The notes under the pieces: generated by a model
Seen by the model: the letters and a program-made list of their open reading frames with translations, nothing else
The model's database searches: none
What the model was told of the DNA's origin: nothing
Position numbers and translations under genes: made by a program
In this document: piece by piece, positions 34,229-53,253 of the stretch
Layout of the letters: each line of letters begins with the position of its first letter
Numbering within the stretch: position 1 is the first letter of the stretch
NCBI GenBank assembly: GCA_963662715.1
Contig: OY759724.1
Location: 1,946,662 to 2,010,661, forward strand
Length of the DNA stretch: 64,000 nt
Direction of reading: 5' to 3'
From: Candidatus Omnitrophota bacterium
GTDB taxonomy: Bacteria; Omnitrophota; Gorgyraeia; Zapsychrales; JANLHA01

Positions 34229-34260
34229 TTAACAATATACATTGTTGTTGTTGATGTACA

Positions 34261-34292
34261 AGCCCCTGCTTAATTTAAGCAGGGGCTTTTTT
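34261..34292 (+). terminator. rho-independent terminator after the porin-like gene
   Basis: AGCCCCTGCTT-aattt-AAGCAGGGGCT followed by TTTTTT. Confidence 0.75.
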
Positions 34293-34601
34293 GTCTGTGT
34301 CGTTGGGGCCGGGGAGAAATGTCGGAGGTGAACGGTGGCTTGGGAGATGTCGGGCAGCCACGGGGTGCGGCGTTCGGCAGGAGCTGTTATCGACCGGACG
34401 GGAGCAGAAAGACGTGAATTAGTCGGGGAAGATCATCCGTCCCCTCATGGATTATAAGTCCCGACGAGAATTTTTTCGCGACAGTGTTAAAAAAAACAAA
34501 ATTATATTTTAAAAAGATTATTTATTTGTTATTATAAAAATAAATATCTAAAAATTAAACGTTTTATCGAGTTCTAAATCATTAAAATAGAGGAAGTTAA
34601 A

Positions 34602-35177
34602 ATGACCAGAGATGAAATTTATGACCATCTGGCTCAGGTATACATAGGGAAAAAGAGTAAAAACGATAAGGAAAAGAAAAAACAGCTCAGCGCCTGGCTT
34701 GTTATTAACATTGTTATTACTGTTGTTATTTTTGCGAGCGCTTTTTATGGCTTTACGGCCTTTTTAACTCACCGGGGAGAATCTTTCGAAAACAAGGTGA
34801 TCTATTCCCTGAATAAAGGTCCGTTGCGTGTTAATTATGATCTGACATACCCATATCCTCCGGTCAAGACCTTTTCCTTAACAACCCCACATGTTAATGC
34901 CGGTAAGTACCAGAAATTGCAATTTGCCATCAGAGGATTGGAGGACGGATATCCCGGAATTGTCCGCATAGAAATCAAGAATGCCCGGAATGAAATATCT
35001 TCTGTCTTTGTCGACGGGGTCAACCTGGGGTGGAAACGTTTTGAAATCCCTTTTGCCGAGTTTGATAAAATTACCGATTGGACCAGTATTACCGAGGTGT
35101 CTTTTATCCTGGAATCGTGGAATACTGATAAACAAAAAGGAATTATCCTTATAGACGAAATTTGCTTTTCCAGCTAA
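34602..35177 (+). CDS. membrane-anchored protein with a C-terminal beta-sandwich, possible carbohydrate-binding module
   Basis: GAGGAAG RBS. N-terminal TM 'WLVINIVITVVIFASAFYGFTAFL'. The C-terminal 'IVRIEIKNARNEISSVFVDGVNLGWKRFEIPFAEF...SFILESWNTDKQKGIILIDEICF' resembles CBM/CIA30-type jelly-roll domains; similarity judged by eye. Confidence 0.45.
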   Translation: MTRDEIYDHLAQVYIGKKSKNDKEKKKQLSAWLVINIVITVVIFASAFYGFTAFLTHRGESFENKVIYSLNKGPLRVNYDLTYPYPPVKTFSLTTPHVNAGKYQKLQFAIRGLEDGYPGIVRIEIKNARNEISSVFVDGVNLGWKRFEIPFAEFDKITDWTSITEVSFILESWNTDKQKGIILIDEICFSS

Positions 35178-35195
35178 AAAGGAGGCTAATGTAAA

Positions 35196-36347
35196 ATGAG
35201 AATCATATCCATTGCGAATCAAAAAGGAGGATGTGGGAAAACCACGACGGCGATTAACCTCTCCTCGGCGCTGAGTCATAATAATAAAAGAACATTGTTG
35301 ATTGACTTGGATCCGCAATCGCATGCGTCCCTGGGGTTGAATTTCGAGAACCAAGACAGCCTTTATAATGTGATTTCTAAACTGACGCCTCGTAAGCTGA
35401 AAATCCGTAATATTATAAAAAATGTCGACACGAATTTTGATATCGTCCCTTCAAGCATTTTGGTCGGGACGCTTGAGCAGGAACTGGCCGATGAGATCGG
35501 GCGGGAGACAAAGATTCTGGAGATCATTAATGAAATTAAGGAAGACTATGACTACATTCTTATTGACTGTCCGCCAAGTCTCGGTATCCTAACCGTGAAT
35601 TCCATCAGAGCCTCGGATGAGGTCATCATACCCGTCGAGACAAGCCGTTTTTCCATGCAGGGGGTTGAGCATCTTATGGACATTATCCATCTGATCCGCG
35701 ACCGGCTGAATCACCAGGTGGACTATAAAATATTGATCACGATGTTCGATTCGCGTTTGAGACATTCATTTTCTATGATGTCAAGCATAAGAGAGAAGTT
35801 CAGGGATGTCTTGTGTGACACAATTGTGCATATTAACGTTAAGCTGAAAGAGTCGGCGGTTATGGGGCAGACCGTGACAGCGTACGATAAATACTGCCGT
35901 GGTTCCAAAGATTATTTCAGCCTGGCCAAAGAACTGATTGCCGCTGAACAGACGGTGGAGAATCCTGAGGCGGCCGTTTCTGCCGGGCGGGAGGTTCCTG
36001 CGGAGACAGCCGGCAGTGAAATTCCTCAGGCACTTTCAGAAAGAATGCAGGAAACGATCAGGGTCCATGCCGGAGAGATGTGCATGACGACATTTACACT
36101 CGCTGCTCCGGATGCCAGGTCTGTCTACGTTACGGGCAGTTTCAATGACTGGTCCTTGGATGAAAATTGCCGGATGCGCCTTGAAGGAGATTCTTGGGTC
36201 GTCAAGGTGCCTTTGCGCCCTGGAACCTATAAATATCAATTTATTGTTGATGGCCGATGGAAAGAGGACCCGGCAAATCCCCGGCAAGAGCGGAATTCCT
36301 TTGGCGATATTAATTCCTTGCTAGAAGTGGTCCCGGTCAATGCCTAG
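35196..36347 (+). CDS. ParA/MinD-family deviant-Walker-A ATPase fused to a C-terminal AMPK-beta-like glycogen-binding domain (CBM48)
   Basis: GGAGG RBS. 'IANQKGGCGKTTTAINLSSAL' (KGGxGKT), 'LLIDLDPQ' and 'ILIDCPPSLG' ParA motifs. After a linker, 'VYVTGSFNDWS...RPGTYKYQFIVDGRWKEDPANP...FGDINSLLEV' aligns motif-for-motif with the AMPK-beta GBD ('GSFNNWS...GEHQYKFFVDGQWVHDPSEP...GTINNLIHV'). Confidence 0.8.
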   Translation: MRIISIANQKGGCGKTTTAINLSSALSHNNKRTLLIDLDPQSHASLGLNFENQDSLYNVISKLTPRKLKIRNIIKNVDTNFDIVPSSILVGTLEQELADEIGRETKILEIINEIKEDYDYILIDCPPSLGILTVNSIRASDEVIIPVETSRFSMQGVEHLMDIIHLIRDRLNHQVDYKILITMFDSRLRHSFSMMSSIREKFRDVLCDTIVHINVKLKESAVMGQTVTAYDKYCRGSKDYFSLAKELIAAEQTVENPEAAVSAGREVPAETAGSEIPQALSERMQETIRVHAGEMCMTTFTLAAPDARSVYVTGSFNDWSLDENCRMRLEGDSWVVKVPLRPGTYKYQFIVDGRWKEDPANPRQERNSFGDINSLLEVVPVNA

Positions 36348-36663
36348 AAAGCAGGCCCTGAAAGAAGACCCCATTTCCGAAGGAAAGATTTTTGCCATTC
36401 TGGCCTATCTGTCGATACTCTGCATCATTCCCTTATTGTTTAAAAAAGATAATCAATTTGTTTTATCTCATGGGAAACAAGGACTCGTGTTATTTATCGG
36501 CGAGGTAGGTGTTTTTGTTCTCAGCATTATCTTCCCGTGGCTGTTGAGGATAGGTTTGTTTTGCCTGGGAATATATTCTTTTGTCGGGATCATTTCTGCT
36601 TTGCAGGGACGAACCATAAAACTTCCTTTTATCTCGCGTATGGCAGAGAACATTACTCTTTAG
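36340..36663 (+). CDS. DUF4870-like small membrane protein
   Basis: 'KIFAILAYLSILCIIPLLFKKDNQFVLSHGKQGLVLFI' matches the DUF4870 pattern. It overlaps the ParA-CBM48 stop by 8 nt. Confidence 0.55.
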   Translation: MPRKQALKEDPISEGKIFAILAYLSILCIIPLLFKKDNQFVLSHGKQGLVLFIGEVGVFVLSIIFPWLLRIGLFCLGIYSFVGIISALQGRTIKLPFISRMAENITL

Positions 36664-36727: not shown

Positions 36728-37468
36728 ATGCCTATAATAGAGAATATTATTTCCTTTTTCGAGAGAATGCTTGGGACCCCTCATCCCAAGAAAAAGAAAC
36801 GAAGTTTGCCCAGGAATAAATCGGTAAGCCGCAGAAAAACAACCCGGGCAAACGAAGGAGCCCGTAAGCCGGGACCGGGCCGGCTTTCTTCCCCTGGACA
36901 GCAAAGCCGGAAGCCTCAGGCAAAGAAGGGCGCTTCAGCGGCCAGGAAAGTCAAAAAGAAAGTTGTTGCAAAAGAAAAGGTCGCGGCGCGAACAAAACGA
37001 TATAAAGGTGAAAATAAAAAGACCGGGACAGCCCCTTCAGTTAAAAAGAAGGCCGTCCATACGCCGAATAAGGCTCGGCAGAGCCCTGTTCGTGGCAGAG
37101 CCCTGCCTGAGGTAAAGAAAAAAAATTCTGGGAAGCCGGTAAAGCAAGCGCAAAAAAAAGTTAAAAGGCCTTCTGCGGGCAATGTGGGAGACAGGTGTGG
37201 TTCAGCGGCGATAGAGTTTGACCGGGTGGGGCAAGTAACTCATTATTTTTCTAAAATTATGGTTTGTGTGGTTAGGGTTGAGGCGGCGGCCATCTCGCTG
37301 GGAGACCAAATTGTCATTAAAGGGAAGAAAACCAAGCTTTCTCAAAAGGTTCAGTCTCTTCAGGTTGAGAGTGTTGACGTGAAATCGGCCAAGAGAGGTC
37401 AACTGGTGGGCCTCAAAGTCGTCAGTCAGGTTTGTCCGGGTGATGTTGTCCAGAAAATAAGAAAATGA
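36728..37468 (+). CDS. lysine-rich protein with a disordered N-terminal 170 aa and a C-terminal beta-barrel resembling translation-factor domain II
   Basis: N-terminal KKKK/AKK-rich low complexity. The C-terminal 'GQVTHYFSKIMVCVVRVEAAAISLGDQIVIKG...VQSLQVESVDVKSAKRGQLVGLKV...PGDVV' follows the EF-Tu/IF2 domain-II barrel pattern. The start is uncertain; an alternative ATG lies at 36770. Confidence 0.5.
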   Translation: MPIIENIISFFERMLGTPHPKKKKRSLPRNKSVSRRKTTRANEGARKPGPGRLSSPGQQSRKPQAKKGASAARKVKKKVVAKEKVAARTKRYKGENKKTGTAPSVKKKAVHTPNKARQSPVRGRALPEVKKKNSGKPVKQAQKKVKRPSAGNVGDRCGSAAIEFDRVGQVTHYFSKIMVCVVRVEAAAISLGDQIVIKGKKTKLSQKVQSLQVESVDVKSAKRGQLVGLKVVSQVCPGDVVQKIRK

Positions 37469-37834
37469 ACCAATAATGCCAGGCCTCCCAAAGATGCGAA
37501 GAAGGAATTCATCGGAAAGATAGATGAGTATCTATTTAAGGTCTGGTGTATCTATTTGACAGAAATATTCTTTTTGTTATAATTTTCTCTATAAGCTTCT
37601 CGGGCGGAAAACGTTATGTTAATTGGCGCAGGCTTGATGAGGGGCAAACAAGATAAACCCGGAGAAGGACGTTAAAAAAATCACGCCTATTATTAAAATA
37701 TGCATTATCATATTTTCCCTGATGCTCCTCGCGCAAAGTCATTGGTTTTCATGTAAGACAGAATTGATAATTCACGGCTAAATTTAAAACTGTGCCTTCA
37801 TAGCGGTGGGAAGGATAATAAAGGAAAATGATAT

Positions 37835-38731
37835 ATGTCCAACGTCAATAAGTCCCCCATGCCTTCCAACGGAAATTTATTTATGATTTTTTCGGCTTTA
37901 AGGCCCTATCAATGGATTAAAAGTGCCTTTGTTTTTCTGCCGTTGATTTTCGGCGGCAAACTTTTCCATGTCCCCACGTTTATAAAGACAGTCTGGATGG
38001 CTTTAATATTCGCCCTTGCCTCCAGCGCCGTCTATGTCCTGAATGATATTTATGACTTAACCGAAGATCAAAAACATCCGGATAAATGCCGCCGGCCTCT
38101 AGCCGCGGGGGTTATGACCCTGTCCCGGGCCAGGATGATCATTGTTTCTCTCTCGCTTATTACGCTTGTCTTGTCATATACCGTTAACATTCATGCCGCA
38201 TTCATCATTATGGCTTATTTTCTTTTGAATTACCTGTATTCGAAATATTTAAAGCATATCGTCATTATTGATGTTTTTTGTATCGGAGCTTTTTATTATT
38301 TGCGCATCCTGGCCGGGGGGGTTGCCAGCGATGTTTATTTGTCAAACTGGATCATTATGTGTTCGGTTTTGTTGGCTTTATTCATCGGATTTAATAAACG
38401 CAAATATGACGTTGATTTTGAAAAAGACAATCACGCCCAGACAGATTCTTATACCCGTTATTATATTGACAGAATGATATCCGTCATTGCCTCCTCCTTA
38501 ATTATGAGTTATGCCCTTTATGTCATGGACCGGGAAACGATTGCCAAATTTCATACAACGGCCCTGATTTATACGGTGCCTTTTGTTTATTACGGGATTT
38601 TCCGATATATTTATCTGGTTGATATGAAATTACTGGGAGGCGATCCGGTGCGCATTCTCTGGAAAGACGGAGTTTTGAAATTGACCGTTTTGTTGTGGCT
38701 CCTGACGTGCACCGTCATCATATACGTTTGA
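37835..38731 (+). CDS. UbiA-family prenyltransferase, decaprenyl-phosphate 5-phosphoribosyltransferase-like
   Basis: 'LRPYQWIKSAFVFLPLIFGG' N-terminus and 'NDIYDLTEDQKHPDKCRRPLAAG' (NDxxDxxxD) resemble the DPPR-synthase (Rv3806c-type) subfamily. 8-9 TM helices. Confidence 0.65.
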   Translation: MSNVNKSPMPSNGNLFMIFSALRPYQWIKSAFVFLPLIFGGKLFHVPTFIKTVWMALIFALASSAVYVLNDIYDLTEDQKHPDKCRRPLAAGVMTLSRARMIIVSLSLITLVLSYTVNIHAAFIIMAYFLLNYLYSKYLKHIVIIDVFCIGAFYYLRILAGGVASDVYLSNWIIMCSVLLALFIGFNKRKYDVDFEKDNHAQTDSYTRYYIDRMISVIASSLIMSYALYVMDRETIAKFHTTALIYTVPFVYYGIFRYIYLVDMKLLGGDPVRILWKDGVLKLTVLLWLLTCTVIIYV

Positions 38732-38768
38732 ACGTGCAGATGAATTAACAGGGCGTTTTTGAAATTTT

Positions 38769-39512
38769 GTGATGATGTCTCCGGCACATATGAAATTATC
38801 CGTTATCATCCCTTTTTATAATGAAAAGGGGAACATCAGCTTTGTTCTTGATGAAATCAACGAGGTCATGGGGCCCCTGGATATCCCGTATGAAGTCATT
38901 GCCGTGGATGACGGAAGCGAGGATGCCACCCCGGACATCCTCCGGCGCTACTCTCAGGATTGGGAGCAGATGACCGTTGTGACTTTTCCTGAAAATAAGG
39001 GAAAGGATGCGGCCATGTTCGCCGGTTTTCATGCCGCCGGCGGGGATGTGATCGTGACTTTGGACGGGGACGGCCAGAACGACTTTCACGATATCGTTCT
39101 GATGCTTCCCTGGTTAAAGGACTATGACGGGGTTTTCGGCGCCAGAGTCAACCGGCAGGACCCTTTCAGCAAGAAAATCGTTTCCCGGGTGGCGGCTTTT
39201 TTCCGGAAGTTGATTCTCAAGGATGACGTGAAAGATACGGCTTGCGCTTTAAAAGTTTTTAAACGCCACGCGCTCGCGAGCCTCTTTCCGATGAGAGGGG
39301 TTCATCGTTTTATCCCGTTTTTATTCCATCTCTCAGGATTGACTTATAGAATCGTTCCGGTGCATCATCGGCCGAGAAGGGAGGGCCGGTCAAAATTCTC
39401 TCTTAAACGGTTTTATTTCGTTTCGACCATTCTTGATCTTATGTTTATGTGGTGGTTTAAGTTGAACTATATTCGATGTCAGCGTGAGGAAGGCGGTCTT
39501 GGTAGAAAATAA
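38769..39512 (+). CDS. family-2 glycosyltransferase (polyprenyl-phosphate sugar synthase, DPM1/ArnC-like)
   Basis: 'LSVIIPFYNEKGNI...VIAVDDGSEDAT...VTLDGDGQND' GT2 DxD motifs, plus a C-terminal TM anchor. An alternative start is at 38790. Confidence 0.8.
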   Translation: MMMSPAHMKLSVIIPFYNEKGNISFVLDEINEVMGPLDIPYEVIAVDDGSEDATPDILRRYSQDWEQMTVVTFPENKGKDAAMFAGFHAAGGDVIVTLDGDGQNDFHDIVLMLPWLKDYDGVFGARVNRQDPFSKKIVSRVAAFFRKLILKDDVKDTACALKVFKRHALASLFPMRGVHRFIPFLFHLSGLTYRIVPVHHRPRREGRSKFSLKRFYFVSTILDLMFMWWFKLNYIRCQREEGGLGRK

Positions 39513-39525
39513 CTCTCAACCGGGT

Positions 39526-40725
39526 ATGTCAAAAAAGATTTGTCATGGATGGTTTCTTCCCCCTGTCCTCATTTTAACCAGCTTTTTTTTAACAGTCATT
39601 TTTTTGGAAATCCTGGCCCGTCTTTTTTTGCCGGTTCCTCCGAGACTCGTCATCGAGAATTTGAACAAACCCGGCCAGAGCGATTATACGGAATATGGAG
39701 ACTTCCATGTTGACCAGGATGGGCATATTGAGAGTGAACGGCTTCCGGGAGGATTTTTTCTTTACTCGCATACGGGCACGCGGCTTAAAAGAAATGCCAG
39801 GGGAGTGGTGCGTAACCATGCTGTTTCGAATACCGATGTGGACATCTCAACCAATTCTTTGGGATTCCGTCACCGGGAACTTGGCCCGAAGAAAAAAAAT
39901 GAACTGAGGATTTTGGTCCTGGGAGACAGTATCACTTTCGGAGACTTTGTCCCGCAGGATCAGACATATCCTGCTTATCTTGAGCGCCATTTGCGGGCGA
40001 TGTTCCCGGCCAAACATATTGAAGTCATTAACGCCGGGGTCGGGGGGGTTGATCTTCAGAACGAGTTTGCCATTCTCATGGAAAGCGGTCTTTCCGTTGA
40101 GCCGGATATTGTTCTGGTAGGCCTGTACCTGAATGATGCCCATGAGTCCCCTTTCTTGAAAATCAGCCGTTTGCCCTCCTGGCTGGACTGGAGTCATCTC
40201 GCAAGATTTGTCCTGGGCAAGGTGGATAAATTGCGTGCGTTATACCGGGAGCATAAGTGGGAGGAGCAATCTCCCGAGGCTTGGAAGGAGGCCAGGGCAA
40301 GGTTTGCCAGGCAGAACCCTTTACGGGAAGGCGGCGGTAATACAGATGCGTCCCTGAATTGGGAGATTCACCATGCGTTCAGGGACTGGGGCTATGCCTG
40401 GGATGACGGGTACTGGGATAAGGTTCTGGACATTATTGATATGATGGCCGATGTCAGTCAGGACCATCATTTTAAATTGGCTTTCTGTTATTTCCCGGTT
40501 CGTTTTCAGATCACAGCCGCCCATCTGAAGAATGAGCCTCAGCAAAGATTTGAAATGGAAATGCAGCGGCGGCGTTTGCCGCATTTGGATTTGCTGCCTG
40601 TTTTAAGATCCAAATATTCCGGAGATCAGCAGGACCTGTTATATGATCATTGTCATTACCGGCCGGAAGGTAATGCTTTTATCGGGGAAATGTTAGCCCG
40701 TTTTATGGCAGATCATTTGCTGTGA
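39526..40725 (+). CDS. SGNH/GDSL-family hydrolase (esterase/acyltransferase-like), membrane-anchored
   Basis: N-terminal TM, 'LRILVLGDSITFGD' (GDS block I), 'NAGVGG' (block II) and a 'DHCH' block V-like motif. Confidence 0.7.
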   Translation: MSKKICHGWFLPPVLILTSFFLTVIFLEILARLFLPVPPRLVIENLNKPGQSDYTEYGDFHVDQDGHIESERLPGGFFLYSHTGTRLKRNARGVVRNHAVSNTDVDISTNSLGFRHRELGPKKKNELRILVLGDSITFGDFVPQDQTYPAYLERHLRAMFPAKHIEVINAGVGGVDLQNEFAILMESGLSVEPDIVLVGLYLNDAHESPFLKISRLPSWLDWSHLARFVLGKVDKLRALYREHKWEEQSPEAWKEARARFARQNPLREGGGNTDASLNWEIHHAFRDWGYAWDDGYWDKVLDIIDMMADVSQDHHFKLAFCYFPVRFQITAAHLKNEPQQRFEMEMQRRRLPHLDLLPVLRSKYSGDQQDLLYDHCHYRPEGNAFIGEMLARFMADHLL

Positions 40726-40792
40726 ATTTCATCACAGGCCATGAGGGCTTTATCCCGGACGGAAGCTGTCCGGGCAAACCCAGGAGAACAAA

Positions 40793-41512
40793 ATGGAAGG
40801 ACCTTTAACGTTGATCATGCCGGTTTTCAATGAAGCCGAAACCATAGAGAAGGTGATCCGTGATACTTACGGAGAAGTGAGCCGCTGGCAGACGGCGGTG
40901 AACTTCATTATTGCGGAAGACGGCAGTCAGGACGGGACAAAGGAAATATTATATGAACTTCAAAAGGATATCCCTTTCACCTTGGTAAGTTCGCAGGAAC
41001 GTAAAGGCTATACCCGGGCCTTCAAGGATGCCCTGGCTTTGGCCGGGACCCCCTGGGTCCTTTTCAGCGACTCGGACGGGCAGCACGACCCCCGGGACAT
41101 GAAGAAGCTCGTTGATGCCGCGGAAGGGTATGATATCGTCAGCGGATGCAAGACCCCGCGGCATGACCCTCCGCACCGGCTGATGTTATCGTTTTTTTAT
41201 AATTCTTTTATTCATGTGCTGTTTGGCCTGAAAATGAAAGACTGCAATTCCGGTTTTAAGCTCATCCGGAAATCCGTTATCGATCAGGTTCTCCCGCAGC
41301 TTCAGGATATGCGGGATTGTATTATGTCAGAATTTATCTTGAGGGCCTATTTATTAGGTTTTAGAATTAGGGAAATCCCCGTAACGCATTATGCCCGGCC
41401 TTTCGGGCAGACGGCTATTTTTCAACTGAAACAGTTGCCGGGTATCATCTGGGGGCTGCTTAAGGCCTTGGTTCATATTAAACGGGAAGATCAAAGAAGA
41501 AAAGCGATATGA
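40793..41512 (+). CDS. family-2 glycosyltransferase (dolichyl-phosphate-sugar synthase-like)
   Basis: 'LIMPVFNEAETI...IIAEDGSQDGT...FSDSDGQHD' GT2 signature. Confidence 0.8.
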   Translation: MEGPLTLIMPVFNEAETIEKVIRDTYGEVSRWQTAVNFIIAEDGSQDGTKEILYELQKDIPFTLVSSQERKGYTRAFKDALALAGTPWVLFSDSDGQHDPRDMKKLVDAAEGYDIVSGCKTPRHDPPHRLMLSFFYNSFIHVLFGLKMKDCNSGFKLIRKSVIDQVLPQLQDMRDCIMSEFILRAYLLGFRIREIPVTHYARPFGQTAIFQLKQLPGIIWGLLKALVHIKREDQRRKAI

Positions 41513-42834
41513 AGATCCTTATATTAGGCGCGGGGCTCGCCGGTTTAGAGTGCGGGCGGCAGCTCCGTCAGCGGGGGTGTGATTTTGCAATTCTTGAAAA
41601 AGAGTCGCAGATCGGCGGCCTCGCCAGGACCAACAAGACGGGGGATTATGCCTGGGACTTCGGCGTGCATGCTCTTTACAGCCGGCATCCTCATATGACC
41701 CGGTATCTGCACAGCCTGCCGTTGGACTACGTTCCGTCGGAACGGAGAGTTTCCATTTATCATACATCAGGCAGAAACGCGCCCCCGTATTTGATTAACT
41801 ATCCTTTTGAGGAAGGCATCAAGGGCCTGCCCTGGAAGGACCGCTGGGAATGCATCGGCGGATATTTCATTTCGAAATTTCGGCATCAATCCGAATATTG
41901 TCATTTGCAGGATTGGATCGATCACGGGCTGGGCTTCGGGATCGCCAAGCATTTTATGACGCCCTACAACCGGAAAATCTGGAACTGTCCCCTTGAGGAC
42001 ATTTCCATGGATTTGGTCAATGCGAAGATTCATCCCGCTTCACTCAAGAATTTTCTTATGGCCGCTTTCGGCAGGGAGGTTATCGGGCGAATCTATCAAT
42101 GGAAATTTGTTTATCCCCGCAGGGGCATTCAGGCCTTAATGGATTACACGGCGCAAGACATCCGCGATAAGATACGGGTCAAAAAGCAGGTGGAGAAAAT
42201 AAGACGGCAGGGTACGGGCTGGGAGGTTTTAACGACCGACGGGGATATTGAGAAGGCGGATAGGGTGATTTCTACGATCCCTTTGGTGGAATTATTGAAA
42301 ATGGTTGAAATGGAAGGCCTGCACAAGAGTTTTTCTCAGCTGAAATGGAATGACACGTATTTCATTCTTGTCGGATTAAGAAAGGGATGCCGGTTTTCAT
42401 TGCTGAACGACTGCCACTGGGCTTTTTTTAAAGAGCAGGAAATTTTCTACCGGATCACGATGATGCATAATTTCAGTGAGGAGTTTTTGCCCGCCTTGGT
42501 TGCGGAGGTGACAAATAAGGAAGCCGTCCGGCAGATGTCCCCGGAACAAATACAGGCCGGGGTCCTCAAGGACTTGACGCGTTTGAACATTATCAAGAAC
42601 TCCCGGGATGTCGCTGTCACGGACATACGATACGTTCCTTATACGTACCCTATCCCTACGGTCGATCTGGATTCCGTCAAGGATACGATCACCCGGCGAC
42701 TGGAAAGGGAAAATATATTGCTTGTCGGACGAAACGGGCGCTGGGATTACCTGAACATGGACGGGATACTCCGGTCCGTTTCCGAATTTATCCGGGGCTA
42801 TTTTGGTGATGAGCCGGACGGCCCGCCGCTTTAG
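41509..42834 (+). CDS. FAD/NAD(P)-binding oxidoreductase (amine-oxidase / UDP-galactopyranose-mutase-like fold)
   Basis: 'MKILILGAGLAGLECGRQL...ILEKESQIGGLARTNKTGDYAWDFGVHALYS' GxGxxG dinucleotide motif and 'GG.A.T' motif. It overlaps the GT2 stop by 4 nt. Confidence 0.6.
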   Translation: MKILILGAGLAGLECGRQLRQRGCDFAILEKESQIGGLARTNKTGDYAWDFGVHALYSRHPHMTRYLHSLPLDYVPSERRVSIYHTSGRNAPPYLINYPFEEGIKGLPWKDRWECIGGYFISKFRHQSEYCHLQDWIDHGLGFGIAKHFMTPYNRKIWNCPLEDISMDLVNAKIHPASLKNFLMAAFGREVIGRIYQWKFVYPRRGIQALMDYTAQDIRDKIRVKKQVEKIRRQGTGWEVLTTDGDIEKADRVISTIPLVELLKMVEMEGLHKSFSQLKWNDTYFILVGLRKGCRFSLLNDCHWAFFKEQEIFYRITMMHNFSEEFLPALVAEVTNKEAVRQMSPEQIQAGVLKDLTRLNIIKNSRDVAVTDIRYVPYTYPIPTVDLDSVKDTITRRLERENILLVGRNGRWDYLNMDGILRSVSEFIRGYFGDEPDGPPL

Positions 42835-42975
42835 GGCCGGTTTATCTCCAGGGCGCTGGCTTTTATAACAGTCCCCCCAGGAGGGCGGAAGGGGGGGAAC
42901 GGACACGGGCAGCGACTGGCCGTGTGTTTGTGAAATCAATGAATGGATACATTGCTTCTGTAAGATCTCTCCTTT

Positions 42976-44637
42976 ATGAAAATTCAATTAAGAAAAATAT
43001 CCCCTGGGGCTGTCTGTCACAATGAATGTTTCCCCGCTGTTCTGTTTGTGATCTTTTTTGTCTTGAGCTGGCTGTTCATGCAGCACACTTTCAGTTATAA
43101 AGACGATACATTTTTCCTGAGACATAAAGTCTGGAGCGATTTCGGGGCGCATATCCCTCTCATCAGATCTTTTTCCATGGGAGATAATTTCTCCCTCGAA
43201 CACCCCCTGTTCCCGGGAGACCGGATGCGCTATCATTTCCTTTTTTATTCCTGGGTCGGACTTCTTGAGCAATGGGGGCTTAATATCGCTGTGGCTCTTA
43301 ACCTGCTCAGCGCCTTTGGTTTGGCTTTGTTGATGTGGCTCATCTTTCGTCTGAGTGAAAAGATGTTCACCAGCCGTTTAGCCGGGCTGCTCGCGGTCCT
43401 GCTTTTTCTTTTTAACGGATCCCTGTCCTGCCTGTTTTTCTTCCAGAAACATCCCTTGCACTGGAGTTCCTGGCAGGACATTATCACGGCAGACTCTTTT
43501 GCTTCGTTTGGGCCCTGGAACGGGATCGTAAGTATTTTCTGGACCCTGAATATCTACACCAATCAGCGGCATTTGGCTTTAAGTTATGCCGTGATCCTTT
43601 TATGTTTGTGGCCGCTGATGACCCTGGCTTTTGAAGGGAGAAAGATATCCTTAAGGAATAAGATCGCGATCGGCATGGTCGCGGCGCTTGCCCCGTTTCT
43701 TCATCATACGATTATCCCCGTTGTTTTTACATATGTTGTGATGTGGATGATATTTTGTCCCCGGATGGCAAGGGCCATAGGCCCTTATTATCTGTTCATG
43801 TTCCTTTGCGCGGTCCCGGCATTATGGTATATGAACGACGGCTCTTCCGTTGATTTTGTCTATTCCCCGGGGTTTGTTCAGCAGCCCAAAAACTGGGTGG
43901 AGTGGGCGGAATACTGGATGTATAATCTGGGGCTTTATACCGTTCTCATACCCTTTGTCTTTATATGGGCGAAGAAAGGGGGCCGCGTCTGGCTGGCTTC
44001 GTCTTTCATCCTTTTTATTGTCAGCAATATCTGGCGGTTTTCTCCGGACATGTTTAATAATCACAAGCTGATCAATTTCTTTATGATTTCTGTGCAGATT
44101 GTCGTTGCCGGATTTCTTGCGCAATGGCTGCGGAAACCCGGTCTTTTCCGGGCAGGAGCCGTGGCGTTTTTGCTGACTTTGACTTTTTCCGGAGTGATTG
44201 ATTTTTTCCCGATCCTGAATGACGGCCGGGGGGCCCTGCGGGACTTCCGCAGATCGCCCGCAGCTGTCTGGATTCAGGAGAATACGTCTCCGCAGTCCGT
44301 GTATTTATGTACGAACGGGATGAACTCTCCCCCTTCGTTCCTGGGGCGCCGGATTTATATGGGGTACGTTTATTTTCCCTGGTCCGCCGGCTTTCCCGCC
44401 TATGAAAGACTCCGGGCGATTGAACCCGTTTTTCATGAGGATACGGACCAGGAATCGGTTTGCCGGCTGCTTCAGCAGGAGCATATCGATTATATTGTCG
44501 TCGAACCCGGCACCGATGCCTGGCCGGAGATCGATATCCATGACAGTCTGTTATTAAAGACATGGACGCCAATCTTCAAAACAGATGATCGCTACAAGAT
44601 TTATTCTGTCAAGGAGGAATGTGCTGAGACACGTTAA
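42976..44637 (+). CDS. polytopic membrane protein (about 12 TM), putative GT-C-fold glycosyltransferase
   Basis: 553 aa and highly hydrophobic, with large loops. It lies in the glycosylation gene neighbourhood. I recognise no family. Confidence 0.4.
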   Translation: MKIQLRKISPGAVCHNECFPAVLFVIFFVLSWLFMQHTFSYKDDTFFLRHKVWSDFGAHIPLIRSFSMGDNFSLEHPLFPGDRMRYHFLFYSWVGLLEQWGLNIAVALNLLSAFGLALLMWLIFRLSEKMFTSRLAGLLAVLLFLFNGSLSCLFFFQKHPLHWSSWQDIITADSFASFGPWNGIVSIFWTLNIYTNQRHLALSYAVILLCLWPLMTLAFEGRKISLRNKIAIGMVAALAPFLHHTIIPVVFTYVVMWMIFCPRMARAIGPYYLFMFLCAVPALWYMNDGSSVDFVYSPGFVQQPKNWVEWAEYWMYNLGLYTVLIPFVFIWAKKGGRVWLASSFILFIVSNIWRFSPDMFNNHKLINFFMISVQIVVAGFLAQWLRKPGLFRAGAVAFLLTLTFSGVIDFFPILNDGRGALRDFRRSPAAVWIQENTSPQSVYLCTNGMNSPPSFLGRRIYMGYVYFPWSAGFPAYERLRAIEPVFHEDTDQESVCRLLQQEHIDYIVVEPGTDAWPEIDIHDSLLLKTWTPIFKTDDRYKIYSVKEECAETR

Positions 44638-44641
44638 TTTT

Positions 44642-46357
44642 ATGACAAGGAAACCATTTATAACAAGTCTTTGTCTGGCCGCTATTCTTCTTGCGGCGGC
44701 TGGCTTTCGTTTTGTCGGGATCAACTGGGATTACGGATATCAGCAGCATCCCGATGAACGCATGCTGATGCTCGTTGCGAGCCGGATCCGGTTTTTTGAC
44801 AAGCTTGACCCGGATTTTTTTAATTACGGAAGTTTTCCGGTTTATTGTGTGCGCGCCGTCGCTCAATTAAGCGATGCTTTGTTTCACACCCGGTGGGCCA
44901 ATTATGACGGCATGCTCTTTGTCGGCCGGGTTTTGGTTTCCCTTCTTGACATCCTGATGGTTTATTGTGTCTATCGGCTGGCCGACAAGCTTTTCCGTGT
45001 CCCGAGGCTGTCCCTTTGCGCCGCGGCGTTTTATGCTTTAAGTTTTTTCCCTATCCAGAACAGCAATTTTTATATCGTTGATAACTTTGTAAACTTTTTC
45101 CTGACATTATTATGCGGCCTTCTTCTGCTGTATTTAAAAAAGGCCTCTTTAAGCAAGGTTGCCGGCCTGGCGGCCCTGTTCGCCGTTTTATTAGCAACAA
45201 AAGTGACTCCGGTGATTTATTTACCGGTCATTCTTTTAATGCTGTTTTTTCAGGTCCGGGGTTTTCGGTGGCATCTTTTGCGTCCGTGGTACAGGCCGTT
45301 TCAGTACCAAGTGTTGTTTGTGTTGCTTTGTCTGGCCTGCCATTTTGTCCTCATGCCGTATGCCTATATCCGGTTTGATAAGTTCTGGAGTGATATCACC
45401 TTGCAGATGCAGATGAGCCGGGACCCTTATGTGTTCCCTTACACGCTGCAATACGTGGGGACAAAGCCTTACAGCTACTATTTTATCAATATGTTCTTCT
45501 GGGGGCTGGGCCCGATGCTGTCTTCGTTTTTCCTCCTGGGGCTTTTGTCGGTTTTTCTTCCGGGTGCGCAGCAGGCGAAAAGACAGGGACGAGTGTTTGT
45601 CTTCGTCCTGGTCTATGTTTTATGGAATTTTTATTATTTTGCCGTTTTGGGCCGGTCGGCGGTCAAGTTCATGCGCTATATGCTGCCTTTATATCCTTTC
45701 GCAGCCGTGATGGCGGCGGCGGGATTTGAATGGACCTTAAGCTTATTTAAAAGAAAAAAAATGCAGGGGCTTTATTTTGTTGCCGCCTTCGGGTTCATTT
45801 TCCTATGGACCGTCTGCTTTGTTGATATTTATTCGCGTCCTCTCACCAGGATTGAAGCCTCCAAGTGGATTAACCGGCACATCCCGGCCGGAGCTGTTTT
45901 AGCGGTGGAACACTGGGACGAACGTCTGCCGTTGTTCGGTGTTGACCGGTATGTTTTCGTAGAACTGCCGCTGTACGAATATCCGGACCAGGAGAGAAAG
46001 TGGGCGGGGATGAAAGATAAACTCCGGCAAGCCGATTATATTATTATCGCCTCACAAAAATTGTTTGTCCCTTTGCAGAAGCTGGGAAATTGTCAGGAGG
46101 TCGCAAGGTGCTATCCGAGAAGCGGGGATTATTACAGAAAGCTCTTTGCCGGGCAGCTGGGTTTTGAGAAAGTCGCTGAGTTTACCTCTTATCCGGGATT
46201 AACGGTTTTGGGCCGGCGGTTTGACTTTCCTGATGATCAGGCCGATGAATCCTTTTCCGTTTATGATCATCCGAGGGTTTATATTTTTCAAAAGAGGGGC
46301 TTTTCCCAATCCGAACGGCAGTATCCTTTTCCCGCGGAGTCACCGGGGCGGCAGTGA
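44642..46357 (+). CDS. ArnT/PMT-like GT-C glycosyltransferase (GT39/GT83-like)
   Basis: 'WDYGYQQHPDERMLMLVA' acidic first-loop motif and the ArnT-like topology. The start is given per the ORF-track frame (MTRKPF...). My own nucleotide count around 44639-44644 disagrees by 1 nt, so treat the start as +/-1. Confidence 0.55.
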   Translation: MTRKPFITSLCLAAILLAAAGFRFVGINWDYGYQQHPDERMLMLVASRIRFFDKLDPDFFNYGSFPVYCVRAVAQLSDALFHTRWANYDGMLFVGRVLVSLLDILMVYCVYRLADKLFRVPRLSLCAAAFYALSFFPIQNSNFYIVDNFVNFFLTLLCGLLLLYLKKASLSKVAGLAALFAVLLATKVTPVIYLPVILLMLFFQVRGFRWHLLRPWYRPFQYQVLFVLLCLACHFVLMPYAYIRFDKFWSDITLQMQMSRDPYVFPYTLQYVGTKPYSYYFINMFFWGLGPMLSSFFLLGLLSVFLPGAQQAKRQGRVFVFVLVYVLWNFYYFAVLGRSAVKFMRYMLPLYPFAAVMAAAGFEWTLSLFKRKKMQGLYFVAAFGFIFLWTVCFVDIYSRPLTRIEASKWINRHIPAGAVLAVEHWDERLPLFGVDRYVFVELPLYEYPDQERKWAGMKDKLRQADYIIIASQKLFVPLQKLGNCQEVARCYPRSGDYYRKLFAGQLGFEKVAEFTSYPGLTVLGRRFDFPDDQADESFSVYDHPRVYIFQKRGFSQSERQYPFPAESPGRQ

Positions 46358-46558
46358 CCCTGCTTGGGCGTGGGGGAGGAGAGACGAGCCGGAGAAGGAC
46401 GCGTACTTTTAAAATAATGATTCTGTGCGTGGGCCAGGATCAAAATATGATATAATTCCCTAAAATTAAGGAAGAATGCCGGATTCCTAAAATTTATAAA
46501 TATTTAAAGGCCGTTTCCTTGTCCCGGGTCCTCTGAGGCCGCATGTGATTTCCTGTCC

Positions 46559-48265
46559 ATGGATACAAAAAATAATATGATATGTCCTCAAAACCGGTTT
46601 TCCCTGAACAGAAATTTTCTCCTTTTTATCGGTTTTTTTATCTTGATTATTATTGAGTTCTGTGCCTACCAGTGGCAAGGCAAGCTGTCCTTCATCGCTT
46701 CAAGGCTTTGGCTGCTGCATGGGAGCTTTTATGTCCTCTGCAGTCTCGGTGTTATAGTCAAAACCTTGAAAAAAGATTTTCAGGAAAGAAATTTCCGCGG
46801 GCTGTTAATTTTTTTCCTCTTTGGTTTGGTCCTTTTTCATACGGTGGGTTCCCGGGGAATAACCATAAATCACGAAAGCACGCAACAGGTGGCGGACGGC
46901 TGTGGTTTCTTTAAGCAGCCGGATTTCAGCTACACCAAAATAGGTTTTCTGGGATATCCGGCCCGTCAATATCTGCTCCTGGCCCTTCCGTCCCTGATGT
47001 TCGGCCGGAGTCTCATAACTCTCCGGTTGCCTTATGCCGCAGCCTTTTTTCTTGGGGTGATGCTGTTTTATTGCGGACTTAACCGGTATTTTGACGAAAG
47101 GAAAACAGGCCGGACCCTGCTGGCCCCGTTTGTCACCCTGTCATTGCTGTGTTTCCCCGTCCTTGTCAGTATCCTGATTTCCTTTGAACAGGCTGTCCTG
47201 CCTTTATCCTTTACTTTGCAGGCGACGGGGTGGTTTTTATTGTGTCTGAAAACGATAACCCGTCTGCGGGCTGTTTGTCTGGCGTTCATCGGCGCCTTGT
47301 TGGCGACGGCGTACACCCCCGGGCTCGCTTCATGGGGCCTGCTTATTGTCCTGCTGGGCGTTCAAATATGGCGTGAGGGCCGATTGAAGGATTTTAACTC
47401 AACGGTCCTTTGGATAAATGTCCTGTTATTCGCTGGTCTTGTCGGAGCATTTTCGTTCTTTACGCGTATCGATCTGTTTTCCCGGGAGAGCGGATTATGG
47501 ATTCCCCATTATTTGATAGGCCCCTATTTGTTGGATGTCTTCAAGGCTCTTTTTATCCCTTTCGAACAGGCCTTTCTTCCTGTTCCCGTCGTTATTTATT
47601 TCATGTTATCCTTAATGTCTGTATTCCGTCGCCGGGATTTTGCCGTATCTCTCTGGGCGATGCTGACAATTTTTCTGGCCACGCAGCTGGGAGGATTTGC
47701 CAAACCGGCACCCCCTTACAGCCTGCACAGGGCCCTGGTGATCATTCCGCCGCTTTTGACCTCTATGGCCTTGACCATAGAGTCCTGGGTGGCGGATAAA
47801 GGTGTCAGAGTGTTGAAAAGGGTCGTTTTTTTCGCCCTGTGCCTGGGGGTTTTGTTTGCCGGCAAGAATTTGTACGAAAGTTTAAAACTTTGCCGCAGCG
47901 GTCCCCGGGATGTCGTGATATTTAATGTCCTGGATGCGGTCGAGGAGTTCGGGGTTGATAAGTCCGGTAAAATGAGGATTCTTGTCGCTCCCGGCAATTT
48001 AAATTATAGCAACCTTTATGACTGCTTCAGATATTTTCTGCCGAAGTCCGAATTCTTATGGCACCCGACCACCGTTGGTAAGCTTGAGAATATGGATGCC
48101 CCTGCTTTTGTTTATCTTGATAGACCGGAGTGGCGTGCAGGAATTATGGACATGATGAAGGGAGGGCAGGGCCATTATGCCATCATTAGATTTCATTATG
48201 ATAATAAAGAGATACAATTTCTCAGAATTATTTGCGTCTCGGAGAAAAACAAAGACAGAAAATGA
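46559..48265 (+). CDS. polytopic membrane protein (568 aa), putative GT-C-like transferase
   Basis: More than 10 TM helices and a C-terminal soluble domain. It lies in the glycosylation neighbourhood. Confidence 0.4.
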   Translation: MDTKNNMICPQNRFSLNRNFLLFIGFFILIIIEFCAYQWQGKLSFIASRLWLLHGSFYVLCSLGVIVKTLKKDFQERNFRGLLIFFLFGLVLFHTVGSRGITINHESTQQVADGCGFFKQPDFSYTKIGFLGYPARQYLLLALPSLMFGRSLITLRLPYAAAFFLGVMLFYCGLNRYFDERKTGRTLLAPFVTLSLLCFPVLVSILISFEQAVLPLSFTLQATGWFLLCLKTITRLRAVCLAFIGALLATAYTPGLASWGLLIVLLGVQIWREGRLKDFNSTVLWINVLLFAGLVGAFSFFTRIDLFSRESGLWIPHYLIGPYLLDVFKALFIPFEQAFLPVPVVIYFMLSLMSVFRRRDFAVSLWAMLTIFLATQLGGFAKPAPPYSLHRALVIIPPLLTSMALTIESWVADKGVRVLKRVVFFALCLGVLFAGKNLYESLKLCRSGPRDVVIFNVLDAVEEFGVDKSGKMRILVAPGNLNYSNLYDCFRYFLPKSEFLWHPTTVGKLENMDAPAFVYLDRPEWRAGIMDMMKGGQGHYAIIRFHYDNKEIQFLRIICVSEKNKDRK

Positions 48266-48295
48266 TTCCGCTGCCATGAATTTCCTGGGGGTTCT

Positions 48296-49894
48296 ATGAC
48301 CCGGCTATTTATCAGTTTCCCAATGTTCCGCGGTGTTTTTCTGGGTGTGCTTCTGTCTCTGTTGTGCATCCTGAAGAAGGAATGCTTTGTCCGTATTCAG
48401 CTAATAAGAAAGATTCTTCTTGCGGCCCTTGCTTATTTAGCCATCCCTTCTCTGTTGTTTTGTTTTTCTTTGCCTCTCCCGCTTCCTCATCGCAGCGCGC
48501 TTTGTCTTCTGGTCATGTACTGCTTCTTTTCTTCCGTCCGGAAAATTAAGAACCACAGAACTTTCCCGCCGTGTGATTACGAATATAAAATAAGGCTCGA
48601 TTTTTTCCTCATGGGTATTTTGTTATTGGCGTTGAATCAAGGGGCTATCTTTTTTGACCTCAGTGTGGTGGGGGACTGGCATAAACATCGCAGTGTTTTG
48701 ATGAGCCTGTACGAGAATCCCTGGGACCCCTTGTTATGTACAGGCTTTGATTGCTCCGCCCAGGTCGCTCCGGGCATGCATCTGGTTTATTATTACGCCA
48801 TGTATCTTCCCGGCGTGTACGTTTGCAAATTGTTGGGAGGAATGGTTTCGTCTTTGGCCGGGCCGTCCCTTTGGAGTATCCTGTCGGTGTCTTTCCTGAT
48901 CTGGAATCTTTTGGGGATGATGATTGTTTTTCTCCTGTTGCCTGTCGTGTGTCAGGTCCTGTTTAAAACAAAAGACAGGGTGTCCTGGGGGATTTTTTAT
49001 CCTGTCTTAATATTTTTCGCGGGCATGGATTATTGGTTCATCTGGATTCACAAGAAAACCTGGCTGATCGGTCATGCCGAATGGGGGGCGACGGCCTATA
49101 ATGCGCAGATGAGTTCTTTTATCAGTATGTGGTCATGGGTCCCTCATCAGCTTGTTGTCGGGTTCTTAGGGATATCCCTGCTGATCTTGTTCAGCCGGAA
49201 TTTTTCTTTGTTCCCTTTCTGTTTGTGGACTGTTTTCCTGCTGTCCGGGGCCAGTCTGGCCTGGATCGGCAGCATTCCGATATTGGTTTATTTTCTTGTC
49301 GTCCGGTTCCTGGACATCCGTCAGGAATTGTCCTGGGGCTGTCTGCGGAATATTTTTGCCGCGAACCTGATAAACATCCTGGCCGGACTTTTTATAACGA
49401 TGACCATTTTTCTGTTTTACAGCACGAAGGTGGAGGCCGAGGGATTTGATATCTTATTAAAGAGGACAACGGTGGGGGATTTCCTGCTGTTTCATTTTAT
49501 CGAATTTTATCCGACGTTTATGCTGGTTGTCGCGTATCGTCTGTTGCGCCGGACTGTCCCGCCCATTCTAGGGTTTTTATTCGGATGGATTGTCTTTATT
49601 GCCATGTTTCACGGCGGCAACTGGAATGATCTGGTGATGCGGGGAAGCCTGCCGGCGTTGTCTGTTATTATGATTTTCTGTGCTTATGCCGTTCAGGCCG
49701 TGATTCAGAAAAAACGGACCGCATCCCTTATTTTAGTGCTGCTTGTGCTCCTGCTGACCTTCCCTTTATTTTTAAATGAATATTTTGTCGCTTTGGAGGG
49801 GATGCATCCTCAGCTGGAGGAAGGCTACGCTGTTTATATGCAGTATGCCGGAGACGGCCGTGTCCGGGGGGTTTGGAAACTGTTTAACCTGTAA
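48296..49894 (+). CDS. polytopic membrane protein (532 aa), hypothetical (possible polymerase/ligase or GT-C)
   Basis: 12 or more TM helices and no recognisable motif. Confidence 0.4.
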   Translation: MTRLFISFPMFRGVFLGVLLSLLCILKKECFVRIQLIRKILLAALAYLAIPSLLFCFSLPLPLPHRSALCLLVMYCFFSSVRKIKNHRTFPPCDYEYKIRLDFFLMGILLLALNQGAIFFDLSVVGDWHKHRSVLMSLYENPWDPLLCTGFDCSAQVAPGMHLVYYYAMYLPGVYVCKLLGGMVSSLAGPSLWSILSVSFLIWNLLGMMIVFLLLPVVCQVLFKTKDRVSWGIFYPVLIFFAGMDYWFIWIHKKTWLIGHAEWGATAYNAQMSSFISMWSWVPHQLVVGFLGISLLILFSRNFSLFPFCLWTVFLLSGASLAWIGSIPILVYFLVVRFLDIRQELSWGCLRNIFAANLINILAGLFITMTIFLFYSTKVEAEGFDILLKRTTVGDFLLFHFIEFYPTFMLVVAYRLLRRTVPPILGFLFGWIVFIAMFHGGNWNDLVMRGSLPALSVIMIFCAYAVQAVIQKKRTASLILVLLVLLLTFPLFLNEYFVALEGMHPQLEEGYAVYMQYAGDGRVRGVWKLFNL

Positions 49895-49960
49895 TGTGCT
49901 CCCCTTGCGGTGCAGAACCCTGAGATTGAAATCTGATGAGCGGGAGGTTGAAATCAACGC

Positions 49961-53228: not shown

Positions 53229-53253
53229 TTATTTTTTGTCGGGGAGGGGAATT

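Follow-up and report, generated by a model that had tools for sequence, protein, structure and literature searches.

In a stretch of 64,000 nucleotides from a genome of Candidatus Omnitrophota (contig OY759724.1, positions 1,946,662 to 2,010,661; in the following called the window) one gene joins a ParA-type ATPase to a glycogen-binding domain of the CBM48 family. We suggest, with chances that we judge to be about even, that the encoded protein, here named ParA-CBM48, is the ATPase of a widespread and so far undescribed ParA-type system whose cargo is intracellular alpha-glucan that is tethered to and positioned on the nucleoid. That ParA-CBM48 binds alpha-glucan and acts in glycogen biology appears likely, and its link to alpha-glucan is well supported by three independent gene neighbourhoods.

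Results

The gene of ParA-CBM48 extends from position 35196 to 36347 on the plus strand, with the start codon ATG at 35196 and the stop codon TAG at 36345-36347, and codes for 383 amino acids in a frame which is uninterrupted in the translation of the window. These are exactly the borders given by the first-pass annotation, which had been made from the sequence without database searches. A strong Shine-Dalgarno sequence, AAAGGAGG (35178..35185, plus strand), lies 10 nt 5′ of the ATG. The protein is composed of a Soj/ParA-type ATPase domain (residues 1-250, 35196..35945, plus strand), recognized by Pfam, NCBIfam, structure matches and alignments, a disordered low-complexity linker (residues 251-293, 35946..36074, plus strand), seen in the model and in the alignments, and a CBM48 or AMPK-beta-type glycogen-binding domain (residues 294-380, 36075..36335, plus strand), recognized by Pfam, phmmer and AlphaFold/Foldseek. 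Both domain assignments of the earlier annotation are thereby borne out by Pfam, phmmer and Foldseek. The full-length AlphaFold model has a mean predicted local distance difference test score (pLDDT) of 72.7 and displays the ParA core, a disordered segment at residues 262-280 with a pLDDT below 50, and the beta-domain; the C-terminal end of the linker forms a short conserved helix at residues 282-292 (S281-x-x-M284). The protein ends with EVVPVNA and has no signal peptide, thus the CBM48 domain should be cytoplasmic.

Comparisons of sequence and fold give good support for a functional-looking Soj-type ATPase at the N-terminus. Residues 1-175 match the Pfam family AAA_31 with 186 bits (cutoff 27), and further matches within the superfamily are CbiA (63 bits), MipZ and BcsQ. 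When the N-terminal 250 residues are compared with solved structures, ParA of Myxococcus xanthus (8ray, E 7e-48) is the best match, followed by the Soj proteins of Thermus and Helicobacter. Foldseek searches with the full-length model likewise return the Soj/ParA structures 9a6n, 8ray and 1wcv with a template modelling (TM) score of about 0.8 normalised to the target, and McdA (6nop) is also found among the fold matches. The conservation of single residues was followed in 46 Omnitrophota sequences and in 132 diverse members of the family. The deviant Walker A motif KGGxxGK[ST] is present as K10GGCGK15T (35223-35243, plus strand), and both lysines are invariant in 132/132 diverse members; the same holds for the two aspartates of motif 2 (D37-x-D39) and for D124 of the Walker B motif. 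The residue equivalent to Soj R189, R187, is an arginine in 115 of the 132 diverse members, and K216, the equivalent of Soj R218 and M. xanthus R238, is a lysine or an arginine in 104 of them. Both residues are invariant in the 46 Omnitrophota sequences, in which the whole protein is tightly constrained except for the linker, and by alignment the DNA-binding residues are therefore retained.

The cleft at which ParA receives its activating peptide could be traced as well. In M. xanthus ParA the ParB peptide is bound by Y81, E82, D110 and E117 and by a hydrophobic cleft formed by V116, L150, L152, L155, L187 and L192 (PMC12462528). By anchoring on the motifs DxDPQ and PPSLG we located the equivalents in ParA-CBM48 as Y57, N58, E94/E96, Q95, L129, I131, V134, L166 and L171, the majority of which are invariant within the Omnitrophota clade. 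Y57, E94, L129, L166 and L171 are conserved and correspond to Y81, the region of E117, L150, L187 and L192 of the M. xanthus protein. Differences are found in the Walker A motif, which reads KGGVGKT in Soj of Bacillus subtilis but KGGCGKT in ParA-CBM48, and in the cleft itself, where Q95 takes the place of V116 and where N58 replaces E82 in 45 of the 46 Omnitrophota sequences, so that the acidic docking cluster is partly neutralised.

Three other assignments within the superfamily were considered. No NCBIfam equivalog reaches its cutoff for ParA-CBM48 (ParA_partition 114 vs 180 bits), and with no threshold reached and no ParB found near the loci an ordinary chromosomal ParA is not favoured. 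Phyla that carry the ParA-CBM48 family include ones with canonical ParABS. Membership in the bacterial tyrosine kinases (BY-kinases; Wzc/CapB) was rejected, as the C-terminal tyrosine cluster is missing and eps_fam scores 42.7 (cutoff 108), and membership in BcsQ was rejected as no bcs genes are nearby and cellulose_yhjQ scores 69 (cutoff 158).

The C-terminal domain matches AMPK1_CBM (PF16561) over residues 306-380 with 58.2 bits (cutoff 26.8) and CBM_48 (PF02922) with 25.7 bits (cutoff 22.4), and in phmmer the last 98 amino acids find the glycogen-binding domain (GBD) of rat AMPK beta1 (1z0n) with an E-value of 8.6e-10. The first-pass annotation had made its reading dependent on a structural match to this fold, and such a match was found. 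With the domain-only AlphaFold model (pLDDT 81.1) the top Foldseek matches are the GBDs of AMPK beta1 and beta2 (1z0m_B, E 6.4e-8, TM 0.85 normalised to the target, root mean square deviation 2.1 Å, 30% identity), and the next one is the CBM48 domain of the starch phosphatase SEX4 (3nme). The motifs GSFNDWS, YKYQFIVDGRW and GDINSLLEV that had been pointed out in the sequence all occur in the protein, and at most of their positions the residue does not vary among 46 members of the family. As glycan-contact residues of rat beta1 we take W100, K126, W133, L146 and N150, from the work on 1Z0M/1Z0N. Their equivalents are W319, K346/Q348, W355, F369 and N373; the two tryptophans, F369 and N373 are invariant in Omnitrophota. 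Among the 132 diverse members the W100 position is W in 125, the W133 position W in 120, the K126 position R or K in 124, the L146 position F, Y or L in 96 and the N150 position N or D in 118. Judged by these residues, the CBM48 domain is predicted to bind glycogen. A weak NCBIfam match to the plug protein of the type IX secretion system (T9SS) covers residues 292-354. The nearest relatives of the domain outside the ParA fusions are multi-CBM48 proteins with pullulanase-associated domains. Some of these relatives are tandem-repeat proteins (P0121, P0134, P0162 and P0201) with 4-18 CBM48/AMPK1_CBM repeats; the largest number, 18, occurs in P0121 (WP_305767917.1) of Candidatus Epulopiscium viviparus, a protein of 1812 aa with a sub-threshold PUD match.

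The fusion is conserved in relatives, a point that the earlier annotation had left to be checked. Every one of the 120 best homologues (63-100% identity) has the full length and contains PF16561; the named ones among them are Omnitrophota proteins called 'AAA family ATPase' or 'chromosome partitioning protein'. An exhaustive search covered 1.84 billion cluster representatives at 50% identity, among which the close Omnitrophota clade counts as one representative. One N-terminal ParA and one C-terminal CBM48 are present in 129 of the 150 best representatives (32-46% identity), the others being 10 multi-CBM48 repeat proteins and 11 ParA-only proteins, several of which are fragments. Across the family the linker spans about 5-360 residues. 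A locus scan with one genome per GTDB species returned 80 loci; 88 loci were fetched overall, and in 85 of these, from more than 10 phyla, the gene is a single fused open reading frame (ORF). Carriers are found in Omnitrophota, Planctomycetota (Phycisphaerae, Pirellulales, Ca. Kuenenia stuttgartiensis), Myxococcota, Thermodesulfobacteriota, Zixibacteria, Eisenbacteria, Krumholzibacteriia, Latescibacterota, Rokubacteria, Margulisbacteria, Gammaproteobacteria (Thiogranum, Thiohalobacter) and Spirochaetes. A query with a Myxococcota member again yielded none but full-length homologues with generic annotation, the named ones all from uncultured metagenome-assembled genomes (MAGs). The fusion is thus real and conserved, and an assembly or frameshift artefact that joined two separate genes is for all practical purposes excluded: the frame is uninterrupted, hundreds of independent assemblies (NCBI, ENA, JGI, Logan) have the same full-length architecture, the fused frame recurs at nearly every locus and nothing was found in favour of an artefact.

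The link to alpha-glucan metabolism comes from the neighbourhoods of the fusion in relatives. At 13 Omnitrophota loci (L015-L017, L019-L026, L028 and L030) a GH57 gene (Pfam 213 bits) lies directly upstream of c1, the gene that precedes the fusion in this phylum. The GH57 family comprises glycogen branching enzymes, 4-alpha-glucanotransferases and amylopullulanases (PMC11046441). At a Latescibacterota locus (L086) the genes that follow ParA-CBM48 on its strand code for a stand-alone CBM48 protein, for two proteins similar to GT5/GT1 glycogen synthases, for GH57 and for an alpha-glucan phosphorylase. At a Thermodesulfobacteriota locus (L040) the fusion has an FlhG-like partner, and the opposite strand carries a CBM48 protein, GH57, DUF4912 and a GT5-like glycosyltransferase. 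Glycogen synthesis has been reported to be encoded in Omnitrophota MAGs (PMC8542988). The glucan clusters extend over 9763-16927 in L086 and 6337-10649 in L040; they hold DUF4912 or an alpha-glucan phosphorylase with DUF3417, and their stand-alone CBM48 proteins are ~100-125 aa long.

Outside Omnitrophota the gene directly downstream of the fusion often codes for a ParA-superfamily paralogue of 280-670 aa, and a match to a hidden Markov model (HMM) of this partner lies within 4 kb of the fusion at 24 of 53 non-Omnitrophota loci. The profile of the partner matches FleN (5j1j, E 5.9e-33), FlhG (4rz2, 1e-27) and MinD; its Walker A motif, however, is degenerate or missing, no flagellar or Min genes are nearby, and the activator helix of FlhG is replaced by the peptide LGRGL..SHLFLS. 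The N-terminal peptide of the partner can be written as (K/R)LGRGL-x-D-(V/I)-S-H-(L/I/Y)-F-L-S, with MPRDLS(D/E)VL(D/H)YF(L/M)P as the form in Myxococcota; the strict pattern is found at 16 loci and looser forms at several more. Within the motif by which M. xanthus ParB binds ParA the functionally tested positions are L11, R13, L15, L18 and I19 (PMC12462528), and the L-x-R-x-L-x-x-(V/I) spacing of the partner peptide reproduces four of these five. From this ParB-like spacing we infer that the FlhG-like partner acts as the ATPase activator.

A ParB itself could not be found. The window contains neither a ParB nor a second ParA, and no ParB-like ORF was detected within about 8 kb of the fusion at the 88 loci with a Spo0J probe run with no positive control. 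The GERRxRA motif occurs at these loci only once, in a small ORF that lies 5.5 kb away from the fusion, and among the Pfam-annotated neighbours of five distinct contexts no ParBc domain is present, in a search limited to the surroundings of the loci. Near the fusion the ParB/Spo0J partner that defines ParABS was thus not detected. A MerR-family regulator (cluster c9) directly precedes ParA-CBM48 at three gammaproteobacterial loci (L077, L078, L082) and two Myxococcota loci (L057, L059), and an HTH_17/MerR gene is found near the fusion in L006 too.

In the window ParA-CBM48 is the second of four genes on the plus strand. Directly 5′ of it lies c1 (34602..35177), which codes for a bitopic membrane protein of 191 aa. 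Its conserved N-terminal peptide, MTRDEIYDHLAQVYIG (34602-34649, plus strand), is nearly invariant in the Omnitrophota loci as M-x-(K/R)-x-E-(I/V)-Y-(E/D)-H-L-A-x-(V/I)-Y-L and is followed by a Lys-rich stretch and a transmembrane helix at about residues 31-55 (34692-34766, plus strand). The beta-sandwich-like domain after the helix has invariant E131, W144, F168, E171, W173 and N174; it resembles CBM11/CBM30 weakly, finds nothing significant among solved structures (CBM11 2lro, E 1.8) and is presumably periplasmic. The third gene, c4 (36340..36663), codes for a small DUF4870/MamF-MmsF-like membrane protein of 107 aa, and its ATG overlaps the stop codon of ParA-CBM48 by 8 nt, an arrangement of translational coupling. 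The fourth gene, c2 (36728..37468), codes for 246 aa which begin with a short amphipathic N-terminus and a histone-H1-like disordered region with 26% K+R (36728-37213, plus strand; 19-32% across loci) and end with a conserved beta-barrel of ~84 aa that is similar to domain 2 of EF-Tu (37214-37465, plus strand; weak similarity to EF-Tu/SelB/eIF5B domain 2, E 0.002). The c2 protein is probably DNA-binding. These flanking genes are as the first-pass annotation had described them, but their Pfam matches are all sub-threshold (CBM_11 21 bits for c1, DUF4870 19.7 bits for c4, EF-Tu D2 17.7 bits for c2). In NCBIfam no specific family was found for c1, c2, the FlhG-like partner and two other neighbours.

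A terminator-like hairpin with a 13-bp stem and a T-run (34260..34288, plus strand) stands 3′ of an Alginate_exp porin gene and marks the upstream boundary, and a promoter-like site (9/12 with extended TG, 34508..34535, plus strand; weak evidence) precedes c1. On the downstream side a sigma-70 promoter with perfect 12/12 consensus (37556..37583, plus strand) lies 5′ of UbiA/glycosyltransferase genes. The upstream terminator and the downstream promoter fit an operon of c1, ParA-CBM48, the DUF4870 gene and c2. The downstream promoter is composed of TTGACA, a 16 nt spacer with TG, and TATAAT, in a region that holds twice as many promoter-like sites as shuffled controls.

The operon partners are conserved in Omnitrophota. 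In HMM-based counts, which covered those Omnitrophota-type loci whose flanks are long enough, c1 or c21, a divergent form of it, is directly upstream of ParA-CBM48 at 31/31 loci, c2 is present at 25 of 30, DUF4870 at 20 of 32, and an Alginate_exp-family porin lies further upstream at 18 of 23. Outside this phylum c1, DUF4870, c2 and the porin are absent. The earlier annotation had proposed a self-contained positioning system; this idea is not supported, since the fusion travels with conserved partner genes, c1, DUF4870 and the Lys-rich protein here and an FlhG/MinD-like pseudo-ATPase elsewhere. At the deep-branching loci L033, L034, L044 and L050, which have neither DUF4870 nor c2, the position before the fusion is taken by c21; this form measures about 250-290 aa, its N-terminal region is longer, and its match to CBM30 stays below the threshold (24.4 bits).

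Between the operon and pnp (59566-61677) the window contains a block of about 20 kb (37835-57832) with genes for envelope glycosylation and membrane proteins, among them a UbiA prenyltransferase, two members of GT2, a GDSL-like protein, a flavoprotein of the amine-oxidase type, a PMT_2-like protein, DUF2298, an NAD-epimerase and a membrane protein similar to spermine synthase. No Pfam match is obtained for three ORFs of this block, 530-570 aa in length (42976-44637, 46559-48265 and 48296-49894). As rpsO-pnp follows directly after the operon in L001/L002, the block looks like an inserted or lineage-specific island. A spermine/spermidine-synthase C-terminal domain is found in two proteins at opposite ends of the window (3980-5647, minus strand, 555 aa, and 55976-57832, plus strand, 618 aa), which are 22% identical. 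The window also codes for a Hel308-like helicase that contains an 'archaeal helicase domain 4' (7689-9872, minus strand) and for a DNA polymerase of family X that contains a PHP domain (18380-20119, plus strand), a DNA-repair set that is unusual for a bacterium although both proteins are known in some bacterial phyla.

Discussion

The domains of ParA-CBM48 give a hint how such a system might work. With ATP bound, the Soj-like N-terminal domain would dimerise and bind the nucleoid non-specifically, and the CBM48 domain, carried by each subunit on a flexible linker of variable length, would bind the outer alpha-1,4-glucan chains of glycogen particles. As every subunit has its own CBM48 and the granules are multivalent, the granules would be tethered to and spread over the chromosome and so be positioned and inherited with it. 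A partner would then stimulate ATP hydrolysis by docking its N-terminal peptide into the ParB-type cleft that lies where the two ParA subunits of the dimer meet, by which the tether is reset. Outside Omnitrophota this partner would be the adjacent FlhG/MinD-like pseudo-ATPase with its LGRGL-x-D-V-S-H-L-F-L-S peptide. In Omnitrophota, including the organism of this window, the role is probably taken over by the operon partners, the candidates being c1 with its cytoplasmic N-terminal peptide and the Lys-rich c2; a membrane-anchored peptide as the resetter could couple the position of the granules to the envelope. Nucleoid binding, the identity of the activator and positioning or partitioning as the outcome are inferences. 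The full proposal is put forward tentatively, and we give it somewhat less than even chances: a ParA-driven system of wide phylogenetic distribution would actively tether glycogen granules to the nucleoid, space them there and partition them, and lineage-specific activators would reset it.

Several observations weigh against a glycogen-positioning system of this kind. In classical ParA ratchets the activator has to be on the cargo, and in ParA-CBM48 it is the cargo binder that sits on the ATPase, which may result in tethering alone instead of directed motion. The check for glycogen genes, which had been recommended by the earlier annotation, was positive in relatives, where the fusion adjoins GH57, GT5-type synthases, phosphorylase and CBM48 proteins, but no glycogen gene is present in the 64-kb window; the adjacency to GH57 is confined to one Omnitrophota sub-clade, and the genome studied here is outside of it. 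The claimed motif-for-motif likeness to AMPK-beta holds for the motifs but not for the whole glycan site, as the Omnitrophota proteins carry Q348 at the position of AMPK beta1 K126 and a conserved lysine, K346, two residues earlier. In the N-terminal peptides of c1 and of the c2 protein of the window the hydrophobic residues are spaced as in the ParB motif, but the central residue is acidic instead of basic, which might be a charge swap that compensates for the partly neutralised docking cluster of the Omnitrophota ATPases. Moreover, hhalign finds no profile relationship between c1 and the FlhG-like partner, and for this reason we do not claim that their N-terminal peptides are homologous. Finally, the conserved Omnitrophota partners c1 and DUF4870 are membrane proteins beside an outer-membrane porin, which fits a role at the envelope equally well.

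Such a role would be that of a membrane or envelope scaffold: ParA-CBM48, recruited by c1 and DUF4870, would organise or regulate a machine for the synthesis or export of alpha-glucan, or would localise glycogen enzymes, at the inner membrane, in analogy to BcsQ, which localises cellulose synthase, or to a membrane adaptor that activates a cytosolic BY-kinase. The invariant Omnitrophota neighbour c1, bitopic and with a cytoplasmic peptide and a CBM-like outer domain, the translationally coupled DUF4870 protein, the frequent upstream porin, the generic Pfam/NCBIfam matches to BcsQ and tyrosine autokinases and the fact that FlhG/MinD-type partners are typically membrane-associated are all consistent with it. 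We nevertheless consider a scaffold rather improbable, as ParA-CBM48 resembles Soj much more closely than BcsQ or Wzc and has no C-terminal tyrosine cluster, its CBM48 domain is cytoplasmic, the porin gene and the operon are set apart by a strong terminator in the window, and c1, DUF4870 and the porin do not accompany the fusion into the many other lineages in which it occurs. The close similarity to chromosomal Soj/ParA, with the DNA-binding and ParB-cleft residues kept, could on the other hand point to a glycogen-sensing regulator, in which the CBM48 domain reports the glycogen status to a ParA-type switch for chromosome segregation, division-site placement or another nucleoid process rather than for the moving of granules, as Soj, MipZ and PomZ act in such processes. 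The ParB-like peptide of the partner, the presence of ftsK and rodZ a few kb downstream in L001/L002 and the regulatory action of the GBD in AMPK would suit a sensor. This explanation appears unlikely to us: among ParB, Min and division genes none is a consistent neighbour at the 85 loci, the recurrent neighbours are glycogen enzymes and not cell-cycle genes, and a long, variable and disordered linker suits a tether better than an allosteric sensor.

Very unlikely, in our opinion, is a C-terminal beta-sandwich that has the CBM48 fold but serves as a protein-protein or dimerisation module, with a protein complex as the cargo. CBM48 and Ig-like folds are indeed reused for protein contacts, for example, at the CBM-kinase interface of AMPK, there is the weak T9SS plug match, and in Omnitrophota the ERNSFGDINS loop is invariant to a degree that CBMs do not usually reach. 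However, both tryptophans, the basic residue and the asparagine of the glycan site are kept across phyla (in 118-125 of the 132 diverse members), the best scores are obtained with CBM48s that bind glycogen or starch, and glycogen genes and further CBM48 proteins recur nearby.

Among the known systems the proposed alpha-glucan tether is most similar in sequence and fold to chromosomal ParA/Soj (T. thermophilus 1wcv, H. pylori 6iub, M. xanthus 8ray; 36% identity), with which it shares Walker A, motif 2, Walker B, the equivalents of the DNA-binding arginines and the cleft. Like ParB in ParABS, its partner in many lineages bears an N-terminal L-x-R-x-L-x-x-V peptide; unlike ParABS, it has no adjacent parB, possesses the extra linker and CBM48, and has FlhG-like or membrane and Lys-rich proteins as partners. 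In McdA-McdB, which positions carboxysomes, and in PomXYZ, PpfA-TlpT and ParC-ParP an orphan ParA-type ATPase serves, as proposed for ParA-CBM48, a non-DNA cytoplasmic cargo, a partner on the side of the cargo stimulates the ATPase, and c2, being disordered and highly charged, recalls the McdB-type proteins. In these systems, however, the cargo adaptor is a separate protein, whereas in ParA-CBM48 the putative cargo module is within the ATPase and the cargo would be a polysaccharide.

Storage granules are tethered to the nucleoid in other bacteria. PhaM of Ralstonia and PhaF of Pseudomonas attach polyhydroxybutyrate/polyhydroxyalkanoate granules to the nucleoid for distribution to the daughter cells, and the DNA-binding tail of PhaF, Lys-rich and similar to histone H1, is reminiscent of the Lys-rich part of c2. 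On the contrary, PhaM and PhaF are not ATPases, are unrelated to ParA-CBM48 in sequence and carry a polyester instead of an alpha-glucan. The GBD of AMPK beta, SEX4, laforin, Stbd1 and Atg45 are comparable from the side of the cargo, as all of them are regulatory or transport proteins that are brought to glycogen or starch by a CBM without catalytic activity, and AMPK and SEX4 share with ParA-CBM48 also the fold and the residues of the glycan site. In these proteins the CBM is fused to a kinase scaffold, a phosphatase or an autophagy receptor, in ParA-CBM48 to a ParA ATPase in a family that is bacterial.

The first-pass annotation knew of no described system of this kind, and our search agrees: neither literature on ParA-glycogen or ParA-CBM48 systems, in the library searched, nor a curated family was found, the word glycogen is absent from two surveys of ParA/MinD cargos, and a large review of prokaryotic alpha-glucan metabolism from 2024 mentions neither ParA nor the nucleoid (PMC11046441). 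As ParA-CBM48 sequences are abundant in the databases under generic names, we regard the family as kin of the ParA/MinD cargo systems and not as a separate category.

If the proposal is true, ParA-CBM48 would be the first ParA-type system with a cargo-binding module built into the ATPase, so that the cargo would be bound through a covalently joined module and not through an adaptor, and the ParB-like peptide would reside on a pseudo-ATPase of the same superfamily. It would also be the first system that actively positions a storage granule made of polysaccharide. A conserved multi-phylum family with identifiable partners would provide a molecular handle on the question how bacteria place and inherit glycogen, their commonest carbon store.

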